Counted from the first letter of the stretch, positions 4,872 to 52,017 are shown. The stretch: 64,000 bases of DNA from a virus (IMGVR_UViG_3300034157_000065:128831-192830); one strand, 5' to 3'. The notes: generated from the letters alone by a model not told the origin. Translations and numbers: made by a program.

Positions 4872-5408
4872 ATGAAAACCAGTCTTCGCCTTCTTCTGTC
4901 TGTTTTGGCTATTACATCGACAATGGCTCTTGCAGATGAACCTGTTGAAAAAGAACTGAGCCTTGAAAAATTTAGCTATCATGGCGTTGGTTTTAAAGAC
5001 AGCAAAACAGATCTTGTTGCCAAACTTTTTGAATGCAATGCCATGTCTTGCAAACGTAAAGAAAAAGACACCAATATTGATGTTGTGTTTACAGATGATA
5101 GAATTCAAATTATTGATGCGAGAACTCGCTATAACAACCGCATTGACTGCACCGTTAATCAGCGTGAAATTAAAAAGTTTTTGACGGACACCTATAATTT
5201 TGAATATGTGAATCAAGATAGCACTTTCTTGGGCATGAATATGACCAGTAATGATGTGGGTGGCAATATCAAAACCACAGATGGATCAATTTTTGTTAAC
5301 GTTTCTTGCATGAACGACTCTAAAATCAATATGGGGTATGTGAATACTCGTTTTAATCTCAAAGACATTTCAGCTCAGAGTTTCAAGGACGCTTTCAAAT
5401 ATGAATAA
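4872..5408 (+). CDS. Exported hypothetical protein
   Basis: Sec signal peptide ending ALA-D; GAGG RBS. Confidence 0.75.
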   Translation: MKTSLRLLLSVLAITSTMALADEPVEKELSLEKFSYHGVGFKDSKTDLVAKLFECNAMSCKRKEKDTNIDVVFTDDRIQIIDARTRYNNRIDCTVNQREIKKFLTDTYNFEYVNQDSTFLGMNMTSNDVGGNIKTTDGSIFVNVSCMNDSKINMGYVNTRFNLKDISAQSFKDAFKYE

Positions 5409-5940
5409 GATCACTAGCAATGGTTCAGTGCATCATCTTATTGATTTGAAATCAAGGGAGGCTATGCACCTTTACTACGGTTTAAAGAACAGGTTTGAAT
5501 ATACTGTTGAGAACCGTGAAGAAGTCGTCAAAACCATTGCTGATGATATTCGTGACTTTGTATTGCAATATGACTTTGTGGTATACCCAGAAAGCAGTGC
5601 TTCGTTTATCAGTGATGTGTTGTATAAGATTGATATTCCAACGTATCAAGTGGTCAAAAACTCTATTGAGAACGTCAGAGTATTTTCAAACACACTTAAC
5701 CTGCAGAAGAAAGAACGCGAAAGCCATGAAGAACGTTTTGCATTGATGGGGCCAAAGTTCAAAATCAACCAGATGAAGTCAACTCAACGTGTTAAATACG
5801 AAGCCGTTATTTTTGATAAACTTGACTTACCAAAAGGTCGAGGGCTTATTGTAGATGACAGCCATTTCTCAGGCACTACATACCGAGCGTTGGCAACTGT
5901 TACTGGCATTACCGATTTCTTGGCTATTTTTTCAAAATAA
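5401..5940 (+). CDS. Phosphoribosyltransferase-fold protein
   Basis: GLIVDDSHFSGTT resembles the type I PRTase PRPP-binding loop; VYPESS loop. Confidence 0.6.
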   Translation: MNKITSNGSVHHLIDLKSREAMHLYYGLKNRFEYTVENREEVVKTIADDIRDFVLQYDFVVYPESSASFISDVLYKIDIPTYQVVKNSIENVRVFSNTLNLQKKERESHEERFALMGPKFKINQMKSTQRVKYEAVIFDKLDLPKGRGLIVDDSHFSGTTYRALATVTGITDFLAIFSK

Positions 5941-34248: not shown

Positions 34249-35244
34249 ATGTCAAAGATCTTAACTGGCGATAGGCCAACAGGTTCACTTCACCTTGGGC
34301 ATTTCGTAGGGTCATTGCGAAACCGAGTAGAACTGCAGCATCTGCACCAGCAAACGATCTTGATTGCTGATAATCAGGCGTTGACTGACAACATGGGTAA
34401 TCCAACCAAAGTGCGTGATAACGTCATTGAAGTCGCCAAAGACTATCTGGCTTGTGGTATTGATCCGAACAAGACTACGATTTGTGTTCAATCACACCTC
34501 CCAGCGATTGCAGAACTTACCTTGCTGTATCTAAACCTTGTCACTGTCTCTCGCTTAGAACGGAATCCTACCATTCGTGATGAGATTAAAGCTAAAAACT
34601 TCGAACGCAGCATTCCAGCAGGTTTCTTAGCCTATCCCGTTGCACAAGCGGCAGACATTACAGCGTTCAAAGCTGACCTTGTTCCAGTCGGTGAAGACCA
34701 GCTTCCGTTGATTGAGCAGGCGAATGAGATTGTCCACAAGCTTAACTCCCAGATAGGTTTTGAGATTGTTCCTACAATCAAAGCTCTTACCTCGACAGTA
34801 GGAAGACTTCCAAGCCTCGATGGTAAGTCTAAAATGAGCAAATCGCTCGGTAATACCATTAATCTATACGCAAGCATGAAAGACATTCAAAAGGCCGTCA
34901 ATTTGATGTTTACGGACAGCAACCACTTGAAGGTTGAAGATCCCGGCCAAGTAGAAGGTAACGTAGTGTTCACTTATCTTGATGCTTTCGATCCTGATGT
35001 GGATGAGGTGGCGAACCTTAAAGAGTTCTATCAACGTGGCGGGTTAGGTGATGGTACATTGAAAAAGCGTCTGGTTGGTGTTTTAGAAACGGTCATTGCT
35101 CCTATCAGAGAGAAACGTCTCTTGTTGAATAACCAGCATGATTTTGTGCTTGATGTGTTGAAGCAGGGGACAATGAAAGCCCTAACAGAAACGAACCAGA
35201 ACGTCAATGAAATTAAGGACGCTTTTGGGTTTTTCAAGTTCTAA
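34249..35244 (+). CDS. trpS: Tryptophanyl-tRNA synthetase
   Basis: TGDRPTGSLHLGH, YPVAQAADI, VPVGEDQ, KMSKS. Confidence 0.97.
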   Translation: MSKILTGDRPTGSLHLGHFVGSLRNRVELQHLHQQTILIADNQALTDNMGNPTKVRDNVIEVAKDYLACGIDPNKTTICVQSHLPAIAELTLLYLNLVTVSRLERNPTIRDEIKAKNFERSIPAGFLAYPVAQAADITAFKADLVPVGEDQLPLIEQANEIVHKLNSQIGFEIVPTIKALTSTVGRLPSLDGKSKMSKSLGNTINLYASMKDIQKAVNLMFTDSNHLKVEDPGQVEGNVVFTYLDAFDPDVDEVANLKEFYQRGGLGDGTLKKRLVGVLETVIAPIREKRLLLNNQHDFVLDVLKQGTMKALTETNQNVNEIKDAFGFFKF

Positions 35245-35273
35245 AATATTTTCAAAAATAGTGAAAAAAGTGC

Positions 35274-35302
35274 TTGCCACATGGACCGGTTTTCGGTATT
35301 AT
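35274..35302 (+). promoter_or_regulatory. sigma70 promoter with A-rich UP-like element driving the repeat/minigene transcript
   Basis: TTGCCA-N17-TATTAT preceded by A-tracts. Confidence 0.65.
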
Positions 35303-35357
35303 AGACACATCAAGACGAGAACAAGAACCCTAACGAAAACAACCAGTTATACTAATC

Positions 35358-35665
35358 AAGTGCCCGAGGTGAACTACCGATGGAGTAAGTAATCAAATTA
35401 GAGAATGAGACTATTTAATATGATGATACTAGCTTTAAAATAAACATTAACCACTTGATAATTAGTTAAGTGCTCGAGGTGAACTAGGAATGCCGTAATA
35501 CACTAAAATTAGATAATTAAATTGATGATATAATATTAGAGTATAACAAACACATAAACATTCACTTTAAAATTGTTTAAAATGAAGTGCTCGGAGGTGA
35601 GCTGCCCATGCCGTAGTCAACAACTATTAGATAATTAAACTTATTATAGATGATGATATTAGAAT
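35358..35665 (+). repeat. Three ~110-120-nt imperfect repeats starting at 35358, 35468 and 35585
   Basis: AAGTGCYCG(G)AGGTGARCT-N4-ATG-NNG-TAR...ATTAGAKAAT...ATAYTAG. Confidence 0.9.
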
Positions 35666-35704
35666 GGAAATGAATCAAGCGGTGCGGTTTTTTTAAGTGG
35701 CAAT

Positions 35705-35766
35705 TTAACGCCCTCCACCAACTGATTAAAGCAACTTAACGCCCTCCACCAACTGATTAAAGCAAC
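35705..35766 (+). repeat. Perfect 31-bp tandem repeat x2
   Basis: TTAACGCCCTCCACCAACTGATTAAAGCAAC at 35705 and 35736. Confidence 0.95.
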
Positions 35767-35770
35767 ACGA

Positions 35771-35799
35771 AAAAGACCTAGAAATAGGTCTTTTTTTTT
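35771..35799 (+). terminator. Intrinsic terminator
   Basis: AAAAGACCTA-GAAA-TAGGTC-T9 (sister of 36604-36630). Confidence 0.9.
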
Positions 35800-35906
35800 G
35801 CGTTCATATAGTAAAAAGTTCTTGCATTATATTTAAAAGTATGATCCTCTCTTTACTTTTTGTATTTTTATAGTATGATGTTGAAGACCAACAGTAAGGA
35901 GGACGT

Positions 35907-38979: not shown

Positions 38980-39127
38980 TTGACCTACTAGTTTGTTTTC
39001 TCTATACTATTGGTGTTGAAAACAAATATATATAAGGAGGACTTATGAGTGGAGATGCGTCTTAAATCATAGCTACATTTATACTTGTTAACTGGCACTG
39101 AATGGTTTTCCATTCGGTGTTTTTCTT
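38980..39127 (+). promoter_or_regulatory. frr leader: promoter, uORF MSGDAS* (39045-39065) and terminator hairpin (39095-39127)
   Basis: TTGACC-N17-TATACT; TAAGGAGG-N4-ATG; GCACTGAATGG-TTTT-CCATTCGGTGT-TTTTCTT. Confidence 0.65.
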
Positions 39128-48810: not shown

Positions 48811-49629
48811 ATGTTAGAACGCATATTTAAAGCAAAAGATGATTTCGATAAGGCCACTCTGTTAAAAGTTTCTGTTGATGATTATAAACCTAAGATCACT
48901 TTCTTTACAGGATCTGGCATTTCTCAGGAGAGCGGTTTAGAAACATTCAGGGCGGATGATGGATTGTGGAGTAATCATCGTGTGGATGAAGTTGCAACGG
49001 CTCACGCTCTGCAAAAAGACTTTAAAAAGGTTAACAACTTTTTTAATGATAGACGTAAAGAAGTCATGGCCGCTCAACCTAATCGTTCTCATGAGATATT
49101 GAAAGAACTTGAAAAGTATTTCCATGTCGTTGTTGTCACTCAGAACGTTGATGACTTGCATGAGCGTGCTGGCAGTTCGTCTATTTATCATTTGCATGGA
49201 GAAATCATGCGTTCAAGACCAGTTGGCAATGCCAAAGTATTCTATGACCAAAAGAAAGACATTAAACTGGGTGATAAGTGTATGTTGACCAAGGCTCAAA
49301 TTAGACCGCATATTGTTTTGTTTGATGAAATGTTAGATGACAGTATTCTGTCTGACGCCAGAAGGCATATTAGAGAGTCTGATGTGTTTGTCGTGGTCGG
49401 TAGCAGTCTTCAAGTTGAACCCGCCGCTTCATTGGTGGTAGAAGGCTTTGGTCTGCGAGATTTTATATTGGTTGACCCAAGCACCGTCTTTATGAAATAC
49501 AATGCTAATTATGTTCATGTGAAAGAAAAAGCGTCTGTTGGTTTGGAAATGATGTTACCTCAGTTGATTATTAAGGCTGACCAGTTGCAAACTCAGTTTA
49601 AAGAAAACAAAGAAAGATTGAAAGCATAG
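48811..49629 (+). CDS. cobB: Sir2-family NAD-dependent protein deacylase (CobB-like)
   Basis: TGSGISQESGLETFR, TQNVDDLHERAG, HLHG, RPHIVLFDE, VGSSLQVEPAA. Confidence 0.9.
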   Translation: MLERIFKAKDDFDKATLLKVSVDDYKPKITFFTGSGISQESGLETFRADDGLWSNHRVDEVATAHALQKDFKKVNNFFNDRRKEVMAAQPNRSHEILKELEKYFHVVVVTQNVDDLHERAGSSSIYHLHGEIMRSRPVGNAKVFYDQKKDIKLGDKCMLTKAQIRPHIVLFDEMLDDSILSDARRHIRESDVFVVVGSSLQVEPAASLVVEGFGLRDFILVDPSTVFMKYNANYVHVKEKASVGLEMMLPQLIIKADQLQTQFKENKERLKA

Positions 49630-49683
49630 TGCATTATGTGCTATACTTGCGGTTATCTATATTGATTCCTTGAAGGATTTAAA

Positions 49684-50463
49684 ATGACAAGCATTTATGA
49701 AAAACTTTTAACCTTACATAATAATGAAGCTCTCGATGACACATCGAATGCCTTTGTTGTTTCAAATTTAATAGGGTTATTGAAAGCTTCATGTGGCATT
49801 GATTTGTCGGAGCAAGCAGATCCTTTTGTTTATAGCGATTTCAGTGTTATGAATGATGGTTATTTTGAATTATCTTATAATTTCAAATATGGCATTGCTT
49901 ATCTATCCACAATTCCAGTAGAACATAACTTAAAGGTGTCGTTTTCTTTTTCTAATGAGATTCAAGAGACTTTATATAAGAATACTGTTTGTTATTTAGA
50001 TGTCGATTATAATATGACATTCGAAAAATCATTATTGAACAGGGTTTTTGAATTCTCAAAAACAATACTTAATCAATCTAAACTAAGCTCTGACTGGTCT
50101 GTGTTACTTGTAAATACCACCGTTAATAGCGACTTAACCACTGTTAACCATTTTTCATATCAAAACAATGCTTCCTATTCGAACTCATCAGATGATATAG
50201 AAGACTTAATGAATCATGGATTACCGGCTTGTTATATGAATTATGTTAAAGAGTTTGATGAACTATTCTTTACTTTTTTAAAATTTCAATCAACTAAACC
50301 ACACGTATTTTATGAAGTATTCCCAGAATATCCAAGTTATCTTGATATTATATCGTCCATTGACTATCTCATTAAAAATTTAGAAATGTTCTCTCAACAA
50401 TACAGTGATGATAAGATATTCCTTAAAAGTAAAATAGCATTAATTGAAATGAGGCTTATTTAA
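49684..50463 (+). CDS. Paralog family B, member 12
   Basis: FPEYPSY; ends SKIALIEMRLI. Confidence 0.85.
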   Translation: MTSIYEKLLTLHNNEALDDTSNAFVVSNLIGLLKASCGIDLSEQADPFVYSDFSVMNDGYFELSYNFKYGIAYLSTIPVEHNLKVSFSFSNEIQETLYKNTVCYLDVDYNMTFEKSLLNRVFEFSKTILNQSKLSSDWSVLLVNTTVNSDLTTVNHFSYQNNASYSNSSDDIEDLMNHGLPACYMNYVKEFDELFFTFLKFQSTKPHVFYEVFPEYPSYLDIISSIDYLIKNLEMFSQQYSDDKIFLKSKIALIEMRLI

Positions 50464-50464
50464 C

Positions 50465-51274
50465 ATGGTTACTATTTATGAAGAGTTTCTTAAAAGAAAA
50501 TCAACCAAAAGATTAGGTAAAGAATTGACTTCAATTATGAATGAGAAGTTAACTCAACTTTTAAAGGATACCTGTAACATTGATTTAAGCGGAACAGATA
50601 GCCCCTTTTCACAGTGGCACTTTATTGATTTACATGATCTTCATCCACACCCTAGATTTACCGTTTTTAATGATGGTGTCATGGATGTTAATTTTCATTT
50701 CAAAAATGGTTCGGCTACGATTATGCTCTATCCTAAAAGAAAAGTGTTAACGGTTGCTTTTCATTTTAATAAGCTCGGTTGTGATTTAATGTTTCCCTAT
50801 GATTCAAAATCCTGTTTTGTTACTGTCGATCATGACATGAACTTTATAGAAGCCCAGTTTAGAATAAATTTTTGTTTATTTAAATCAACTATAGATAAAA
50901 CCGATTCTAGTCGAACATCCAGTATGGTGTCTATTCAAGTTAATCATGACAACCAAGGAGATGTTAAAACACAGTTTATTTATGGCAATAATTTATATGC
51001 TACTTTGTTAAAATACCTTTCTGTACATGGATTAAGTCCAGCATTCTTTAACTCAGATGAGTCGTTTAATCTTATTCTTTCTAGATTTATGAAAGTAAAT
51101 ACTGAACACCCTGATATGTTTTACGATGAGTTTAAAGAGTACATCAGTTATCAAGAACTCATGAGTTCGGTTAATTCAATGGTTTATTTTTTAAATATGT
51201 TTGCTGAGCAATATAATAATGATTTATATTTATTAACGTCACGATTGATGTTAATTGAAATGAGGAATATTTAA
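50465..51274 (+). CDS. Paralog family B, member 13
   Basis: VDHDMNFIEAQF; ends SRLMLIEMRNI. Confidence 0.85.
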   Translation: MVTIYEEFLKRKSTKRLGKELTSIMNEKLTQLLKDTCNIDLSGTDSPFSQWHFIDLHDLHPHPRFTVFNDGVMDVNFHFKNGSATIMLYPKRKVLTVAFHFNKLGCDLMFPYDSKSCFVTVDHDMNFIEAQFRINFCLFKSTIDKTDSSRTSSMVSIQVNHDNQGDVKTQFIYGNNLYATLLKYLSVHGLSPAFFNSDESFNLILSRFMKVNTEHPDMFYDEFKEYISYQELMSSVNSMVYFLNMFAEQYNNDLYLLTSRLMLIEMRNI

Positions 51275-52017
51275 TGAACACCATTCATGATTCATTGATG
51301 AAATTACAATACTTGGATAACCTTGATATTGGTTCATTATTTTATCCAAAATTTATTTTTTTACTCAAACAAGTATTTGACATTGATTTGACTAATGAAA
51401 CCAATCCATTTCAGGAAGTTTCTCAAATGATTGGTGATAATATTGATATTTGCTATCTATTTAAATATGGCAGCATTCTTGTATCCACTCACAAAGAAAA
51501 CACTGATATTAATGTATATGTCACTATTACTGATAGTAGTCTTAGTGATAAAATGCCCTACAAATCTACATCTTGCAGTTTAAAACTTGATCATAACATG
51601 AATTTTATACAGGCATCCTTTGATATTAGTCTGGAATTTACACGCTCATACAATAATGAGTATAGTCTACTACAAATCAAGACTGTATTAAATCAATCAT
51701 CGCGTATTGTTAAAACATTTACTTATTCGAACAAAACAATGTATTCAGTTTCAAAAGATTTGAGATCTTTTGGACTTAGTTCCAACTTTTTTACAGTCAA
51801 TAAAGAATTTGATGATTGCTTAATCAACTTCTTAACGTGCTGTTCAGAGACACCAAAACAATTCTATGATGAATTTCCAGAATATCCTAACTATGATAAG
51901 TTGATATCAACGGTGGAAGGCACTGTACAATTATTGTCTATCTTTAACAAACAATATACAGATGACAAGGATTTATTGAAATCACGATTGTTATTGACTG
52001 CCATGTGTTTGATTTGA
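51274..52017 (+). CDS. Paralog family B, member 14
   Basis: LDHNMNFIQASF, FPEYPNY; ends SRLLLTAMCLI. Confidence 0.85.
   Translation: MNTIHDSLMKLQYLDNLDIGSLFYPKFIFLLKQVFDIDLTNETNPFQEVSQMIGDNIDICYLFKYGSILVSTHKENTDINVYVTITDSSLSDKMPYKSTSCSLKLDHNMNFIQASFDISLEFTRSYNNEYSLLQIKTVLNQSSRIVKTFTYSNKTMYSVSKDLRSFGLSSNFFTVNKEFDDCLINFLTCCSETPKQFYDEFPEYPNYDKLISTVEGTVQLLSIFNKQYTDDKDLLKSRLLLTAMCLI

Follow-up and report, generated by a model that had tools for sequence, protein, structure and literature searches.

The interval downstream of trpS in the DNA analysed here (the window, a stretch of 64,000 nucleotides) is a member of a conserved, uncatalogued family of tandem 'mini-mRNAs', carried by a group of AT-rich, giant-phage-like elements. 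We put the chances at about even that the RNA acts through the engagement of ribosomes. The reading is drawn from comparison of sequences: in relatives and metagenomes together we count 42 distinct units in about 18 arrays, all built on a strong Shine-Dalgarno (SD) sequence, a spacer of fixed length, an ATG and an early in-frame stop.

The window is the final 64 kb of a 192,830-bp IMG/VR record that is flagged 'provirus', with a completeness estimate of 59%. The element has a G+C content of ~33% and is dense with small unannotated ORFs. Two of the ten longest ORFs of the record, both outside the window, matched a PHROG virion structural protein, and the records of two relatives, G001 and G002, are 290 kb and 437 kb long with completeness estimates of 96% and 98%. 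We treat the element as giant-phage-like and AT-rich. A search for gp23, made as a check for T4-likeness, found none and gave no match in any control genome either, so that this absence carries little weight. The TrpS encoded in the window is closest to Acinetobacter-type sequences, and no tRNA or tmRNA genes were found within the 64 kb. Some 4 kb downstream of the array lies a head-to-tail series of 14 paralogous genes (40204-52017, ~250 aa each), with no Pfam match among the neighbours tested.

The first-pass annotation had described a promoter and a terminator bracketing three units of SD, seven nucleotides, ATG, one codon and stop, the second and third preceded by a hairpin; all of these were present where it had placed them, and a 31-nt tandem duplication, which it had not mentioned, was found in addition. 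The features of the locus are as follows, in window coordinates (L010 and G002 are array-bearing sequences described below).

34249-35244: trpS (Pfam tRNA-synt_1b), directly upstream of the array
35274..35302, plus strand: predicted sigma-70-type promoter, TTGCCA-17-TATTAT, its −10 element homologous to those of the array promoters of L010 and G002
35309..35351, plus strand: 5' leader, TATTATAGACACATCAAGACGAGAA..., from a putative transcription start; homologous to the leaders of L010 and G002
35352..35450, plus strand: unit 1, with AAGTGCCC, SD GAGGTGA at 35366-72, 7-nt spacer, ATG-GAG-TAA at 35380-88 and an AU-rich tail
35451..35565, plus strand: unit 2, with SD GAGGTGA at 35476-82, 7-nt spacer, ATG-CCG-TAA at 35490-98 and an AU-rich tail
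35452-56 and 35468-72, plus strand: arms of the unit 2 hairpin CACTT/AAGTG, 5' of the SD
35566..35668, plus strand: unit 3, with SD GGAGGTGA at 35593-600 (GAGGTGA at 35594-600), 7-nt spacer, ATG-CCG-TAG at 35608-16 and an AU-rich tail
35563-67 and 35585-89, plus strand: arms of the unit 3 hairpin CACTT/AAGTG, 5' of the SD
35669..35761, plus strand: 3' module, with a predicted stem-loop AAUCA/UGAUU plus GGUG/CACC
35700-30 and 35731-61, plus strand: 31-nt tandem duplication, the 3' half of the 3' module, containing CCCTCCACC / CGCCCTCCACC
35769..35805, plus strand: intrinsic terminator, with a 12-bp stem (35769-35796), a 4-nt loop and a U-run
39151-39705: frr

The units are spaced by 110 and 118 nt within a promoter-to-terminator interval of ~490 nt that is protein-less, with no ORF of at least 40 aa inside 35393-35906 on either strand. 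A 61-aa frame at 35207-35392 is probably spurious, since it begins within trpS and runs across the promoter. The repeat pattern exceeds chance: GAGGTGA-N5-9-ATG occurs just four times in the 192.8-kb record, three times in the window units and once at a gene, and the same anatomy is found in 42 units elsewhere.

The window units carry the core GTGC-YNG-AGGTGA-RC-N5-ATG and an in-frame stop within 5 codons, which together define the family; they scored 57-78 bits against the covariance model R1 and were recovered by nhmmer with E = 5e-19 to 6e-13. Arrays consist of 1-5 units, each 100-118 nt long. The record G001 holds ten units at four loci, and ten further array loci came from a pattern scan of metagenomes filtered with nhmmer. 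In G002 a cassette ~8 kb upstream of trpS closely resembles that of the window in its promoter, its leader, its three units, its 3' module and its terminator, and probably corresponds to the window element. The array of L010 likewise stands alone with its own promoter and terminator and nothing else inside. The earlier proposal of a dedicated transcription unit is thus strengthened, promoter, leader and terminator being kept as a cassette in G002 and L010. No match to the array was obtained by blastn against 50,697 GenBank phage records, and of the 59 pattern matches among 185,579 species genomes none was a family member by nhmmer. Rfam searches (the whole window at gathering score, the region with E up to 10) returned no family, but merely terminator-driven noise.

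Some arrays are found on very long metagenome contigs, larger than any known phage (L072, 1.86 Mb; L099, 0.68 Mb; L112/L146, 1.54 Mb); these contigs of 0.68-1.86 Mb may be integrated elements, misassemblies or small-genome cells. Because the units of L112 are identical to those of L010, the 290-kb 'provirus' G001 appears to be part of the 1.54-Mb contig. At one G001 locus (L260, G001:183500-184200, minus strand) a different small ORF sits at ~330-370 between two canonical units; it has its own SD, AAGAGGTG-N5-ATG, encodes MKDEHDDL and a stop (8 codons), and is followed by a structured segment and a tRNA-Arg(UCU) gene.

The position of the array differs among close relatives. The closest one, L002 (TrpS 98% identical), has the same element, but with the 31-mer in single copy. 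In L003 and L005 (TrpS 95%) the slot after trpS is occupied by an ORF of ~111 aa in place of the array. The L005 copy (5102-5437, MSNNTELNAY...) fills a slot equivalent to window 35309-35768 and is flanked by a promoter and terminator recognisably similar to those of the window; the ORF gave no Pfam match. A different sequence follows trpS in L004 (TrpS 95%), and the window terminator is also kept in relatives with other cargo in the slot. Given this alternative cargo between similar promoters and terminators, the slot after trpS behaves as an exchangeable promoter-cargo-terminator cassette. The L003 and L005 records do hold a homologous array at another place (sequences L038 and L046). It immediately precedes the promoter and leader of frr, in a slot left vacant in the window. 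The nearness of array and frr to which the first-pass annotation had pointed is therefore only partly general: it is seen in L038 and L046, but G001 and G002 have arrays and no frr.

What the units conserve is narrow. Mean column identity was only 55-60% in alignments of 12 and then 31 units, with invariant columns essentially confined to the SD and ATG, plus C12/C23 in one alignment and A18/C41/C52 in the other. The SD, the 7-nt spacer and the ATG are kept in 42/42 units, GAGGTG replacing GAGGTGA in one of them. A C two bases past G-AGGTGA is invariant, and variation is rare in the GTG that precedes the core and at position 3 of codon 2. Units found with the covariance model, where the SD and ATG letters are not demanded, share the same SD-N7-ATG anatomy. 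That SD, spacing, start and stop are the features kept, as claimed from the window alone, agrees with their being the most conserved parts of the 42 homologous units, and none of these kept the repeat while lacking the ATG or the stop, the outcome that the first-pass annotation had named as refuting its reading.

The stop follows the ATG directly in five units (SD-N7-AUG-UAA or AUG-UGA), after one sense codon in 14, after two in 22 and after four in one, and is TAA in 35/42. In frames +1 and +2 the first stop comes on average after 7.3 and 7.4 codons. When the downstream sequence was shuffled 5000 times, ORFs this short never arose, a statistic that overstates independence because the units share descent and are not independent trials. 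At the same loci, AGGTGA-N5-9-ATG frames without the GTGC prefix are mostly open for at least 30 codons, and one closes after ~15. There are 23 distinct mini-ORF sequences, and the position of the stop shifts by whole codons only. We conclude from these alignments that selection acts on the SD, the spacing, the AUG, the early in-frame stop and the final G of codon 2, and that it does not act on a peptide or on RNA structure in the units: the 23 different mini-ORFs point to brevity being conserved rather than a peptide, and whole-codon shifts of the stop together with the varied codons argue for selection for immediate termination.

These observations bear on whether the arrays could be selfish or structural repeat DNA, that is a mobile intergenic cassette or recombination module without function at the RNA level, whose RBS-like core was inherited from an ancestral gene start. 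The change of slot among close relatives (post-trpS in the window and L002, pre-frr in L038 and L046), the variation in copy number from 1 to 5 units and the HNH endonuclease gene that adjoins the L010 array would suit such an origin. We regard it as very unlikely, given that the SD, N7, ATG and early stop persist in every unit despite the low column identity, that the stop moves in whole codons and that arrays have their own promoters and terminators.

The SDs are unusually strong. GAGGUGA and the C two bases on form 7-9 bp with the 16S 3' tail GAUCACCUCCUUA, which is the usual bacterial one, assumed here, and may differ from that of the host. Against this assumed tail the units have a mean duplex energy of -12.4 kcal/mol compared to -5.2 +/- 2.9 for 236 genes of the element, 0.8% of which reach the mean of the units. 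Codon 2 ends in G in all 37 units in which it is a sense codon (CAG 24, CCG 8, GAG 2 and AAG, GTG and CGG once each). The third codon, present in 22 units, is without G bias (AAC, CAT, ATT, CAC, TAC and others). AUA or AGA as a minigene codon was seen in none of the 42 units, and two consecutive rare codons or Pro-Pro in 0/23 mini-ORF types.

We suggest that the array probably works by engaging ribosomes rather than by a product. Each unit would be a translation initiation region with an unusually strong SD, a fixed N7, an AUG and a stop after 0-4 sense codons. Ribosomes would load on every unit and make fMet, a di- or a tripeptide; termination or drop-off would then occur with the SD/anti-SD helix still in place, and the 30S subunit could re-initiate on the same unit. 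In this way the RNA may tie up ribosomes, initiator tRNA, the factors for release and recycling, and the tRNAs that read the few codons it has, and its position beside phage tRNA genes, trpS and frr would fit a phage take-over or tuning of host translation. This proposal combines the selected signals with the literature on minigenes, RRF and CreT. Synthetic minigenes inhibit more strongly the shorter they are, are re-translated without leaving the 30S subunit and sequester the tRNA of their codon (PMC2490762). RRF promotes peptidyl-tRNA drop-off, and its overexpression raises the drop-off of dipeptidyl-tRNA (PMC10192219), while CreT RNAs are natural SD plus mini-ORF RNAs that act through their translation (PMC8501985; bioRxiv 10.64898/2026.06.02.729485). 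A ribosome sink would matter only if the RNA is abundant, and since the phage needs ribosomes too, its net benefit is not obvious.

The first-pass annotation had suggested that the RNA may sequester ribosomes or deplete the tRNAs for CCG and GAG. Its premise that the element makes little use of these codons was correct (2.0 and 11.9 per 1000 codons in the element's genes, with CAG at 7.4), and its minigene reading survives insofar as the translation signals appear to be under selection. The CCG/GAG-specific part does not survive, because the codons vary: codon 2 is CAG in 24/37, five units are bare start-stops and 22 have an unbiased third codon.

A sharper version of this idea, a codon-selective sink in which host tRNAs for G-ending codons (chiefly CAG and CCG) are trapped as peptidyl-tRNA with the aid of RRF, so that host mRNAs are starved and the phage makes do with CAA/CCA/CCU and its own tRNAs for A-ending codons, strikes us as improbable. 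It would account for the G-ending second codons, set against 13.4% of all codons (and 11% of second codons) in the element's genes, a comparison that concerns the element and not its host. Of the Pro codons in these genes 7% are CCG, and CAG accounts for 26% of those for Gln. The tRNAs beside arrays read UUA, AGA, GGA and UUG, and frr adjoins the array in some relatives. The drop-off caused by RRF overexpression (PMC10192219) and the sequestration of their codon's tRNA by short minigenes (PMC2490762) also speak for it. The third codon, however, is free of G bias in 22/42 units. In published minigene work the trapped tRNA is that of the last sense codon. Moreover, the five start-stop units would trap no elongator tRNA, frr is missing from G001 and G002 although both have arrays, no Pth-related gene was found in a search for one, and the Acinetobacter-type TrpS would not point to a GC-rich host. 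Equally improbable, to our minds, is the fullest form of this idea, a tandem-minigene weapon in which NNG second codons (CAG, CCG) lock the host tRNAs for G-ending codons in short peptidyl-tRNAs and ribosomes in futile cycles, with phage RRF boosting drop-off where present, while phage genes with A/U-ending codons are read via the phage's own tRNAs; array, tRNA island, trpS and frr would then be one translation take-over module.

Arrays occur either as stand-alone cassettes, as in the window, or beside tRNA genes. Eight of them directly adjoin tRNA genes of the same strand, lying after, between or before the tRNAs, which are mostly Leu(UAA) and Arg(UCU); some are annotated as Met with anticodon CAU. 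The sequence 3' of the array varies and may be a terminator, tRNAs, an HNH gene or frr. Genes that recur within 1-2 kb of arrays encode HNH endonucleases, NUDIX (Nudt16-like) hydrolases and T4-type RNA ligase 1 (neighbours at L010 5858-6316 and 5173-5796, L152 6383-7006 and L181 1936-3084), surroundings that amount to a neighbourhood of RNA repair and turnover.

The eight arrays within tRNA gene clusters raise the alternative that ribosome loading acts in cis, shielding long untranslated tRNA or ncRNA transcripts from RNase or Rho termination or setting processing boundaries, with the translation of the cell unaffected. The short hairpin just 5' of the SD in many units recalls 5' stabilisers, and the conserved structured 3' module of the window could be a cargo. 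Stand-alone arrays with their own promoter and terminator, such as that of L010, have no cargo, though, and most of the tRNA-linked arrays lie downstream of the tRNAs, just before the terminator, where no protection from Rho is possible. A stabiliser would also require the SD, yet neither an AUG fixed at N7 nor a stop in frame. With the hairpin weakly supported as well, we consider protection in cis unlikely.

No consensus RNA structure was found across the units, and the folding of the whole transcript is not exceptional (z = -1.8 on the plus strand and -2.5 on the minus strand). In many units a hairpin with the 3' arm (A/G)AGTG precedes the core, with one clear compensatory variant, ACCC/GGGT. 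Its support is weak: pairing is seen in 67.8% of cells, with a single compensatory pair, and 40/2000 shuffles did equally well. The predicted accessibility of the RBS (unpaired 0.38-0.46 in the three window units) is no higher than the transcript average of 0.445.

The 3' module is an accessory of the window's sub-lineage. L002, L038, L046 and G002 have one copy of it, L010 and the tRNA-linked arrays none, and a scan of viral contigs for its motif gave, besides the known relatives, unrelated matches only. Its stem-loop (AAUCA/UGAUU, GGUG/CACC) is predicted in the window, L046 and G002, with the C-rich strand CGCCCUCCACC paired. We considered CCCUCCACC as a free anti-SD for the SDs of the units and rejected it, as the duplex energies were no better than those of shuffles and the motif lies in the conserved stem and becomes GUCUCCCACC in G002. 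An 18-mer of the module, TTTAACGCCCTCCACCAA, recurs in the unrelated viral contigs L057, L059, L060 and L061, inside tRNA clusters and antisense to tRNAs; it is probably a chance match or belongs to a small RNA not yet recognised.

Conservation reaches beyond the SD on its 5' side (GTGC, then C/T, N, G), into bases for which a ribosome would have no need. An RNA that mimics an RBS to act as a sponge for an RNA-binding protein, for example a translational repressor of phage or host, or a CsrA- or RegA-like factor, that recognises GUGCC-GAGGUGA...AUG, would explain this, the stops then merely blocking ribosome read-through. Arrays of 2-5 sites resemble sponge RNAs. The ToxI-like antitoxin RNAs of type III toxin-antitoxin systems and the CsrB/RsmZ sponges are likewise non-coding RNAs of tandem units that have a promoter and terminator, and decoys of this kind can be carried by phages. 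ToxI units, however, are about 36 nt (34-46) long and are followed by a toxin endoribonuclease gene, whereas the family has units of 100-118 nt and varied downstream sequence. CsrB/RsmZ sponges show GGA in hairpin loops, but the family cores (CGAGGTGA, CAGAGGTGA) are mostly without GGA, the CsrA core, which gives way to CGAGG or CAGAGG in most units, and there is no consensus hairpin. Rfam gave no Csr/Rsm match. The extended motif precedes no real gene in the 192.8-kb record, so that target mRNAs are not evident. A RegA gene was found in none of five records, in a search that is uninformative because it gave no match in any control genome. We see a protein sponge as a distinctly improbable account of the arrays.

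Ribosome engagement remains our preferred reading, and it has precedents in single minigene-like units that are already known, namely lambda bar, CreT and start-stop sites. Lambda bar minigenes (barI, barII) and synthetic minigenes of 2-8 codons resemble the window units in consisting of an SD, an AUG, one or two sense codons and a stop, and the bar minigenes and the window array are both phage-borne and without a functional peptide. Each bar minigene is a lone AUG-AUA-stop unit within a longer transcript and sequesters tRNA-Ile; in pth-defective hosts it leads to the accumulation of peptidyl-tRNA and to growth inhibition. The family is set apart from bar, as described, by arrays of 2-5 units in dedicated or tRNA transcripts and by a codon that is mostly CAG or CCG and never AUA, with some units being bare start-stops.

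CreT RNAs are small RNAs that consist of an SD, a mini-ORF and a stabilising hairpin. The family has the SD and the mini-ORF; the hairpin 5' of the SD is weakly supported in our units. CreT has one unit only, 4-10 codons long, in which rare or Pro codons follow one another; it is encoded by the host next to cas genes and repressed by CreA, and it acts by tRNA sequestration or Pro-Pro arrest (PMC8501985, bioRxiv 10.64898/2026.06.02.729485, PMC10097628). The family units, by contrast, are tandem and phage-borne, comprise 1-5 codons without consecutive rare or Pro codons and show no CRISPR context. The neighbours of the window array are trpS and small unannotated ORFs, unlike the cas-operon setting of CreTA, and in the window no CRISPR repeat family of Rfam scored at or above the gathering threshold.

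Start-stop elements, in which a stop directly follows the AUG, have their counterpart in five of the 42 units. Such sites are known in E. coli through retapamulin Ribo-seq (bioRxiv 10.1101/520783). The known ones occur singly, within a gene or a 5' UTR, whereas in the family they are repeated modules of a dedicated RNA. Tandem repeats of similar size in a tRNA operon are also seen in rtT RNA, but Rfam gave no match to the window array. The rtT RNA (Rfam RF00391) of the E. coli tyrT operon consists of tandem repeats of ~100-180 nt in the trailer of the tRNA operon and is released as a stable RNA; its repeats are not known to be built on an SD-AUG-stop core.

In the literature we found no description of conserved tandem minigene arrays in giant phages, often inside tRNA operons. 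Should the arrays act by ribosome loading, they would be a natural phage counterpart of the laboratory 'toxic minigene' and of the host CreT toxins, and a biological parallel for lambda's long-puzzling bar minigenes. Their multi-copy arrays sit among the translation genes of huge phages (tRNAs, aminoacyl-tRNA synthetase, RRF), and they would add an RNA component to the interception of host translation that has been proposed for huge phages (PMC7162821). The family is compact and sharply defined (invariant SD, N7 and AUG, with a stop within five codons), which makes it directly testable.

The leader of frr contains a uORF (window 38980-39153; L046 about 1480-1570; also L038) whose peptide is conserved: it reads MSGDAS in both the window and L038, and MSSDAS in L046. 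The first Ser is encoded by AGT in the window but by TCT in the relatives, and a codon switch with the peptide kept argues for selection on the uORF peptide or its translation. A hairpin and U-tract 3' of this uORF are likewise conserved.
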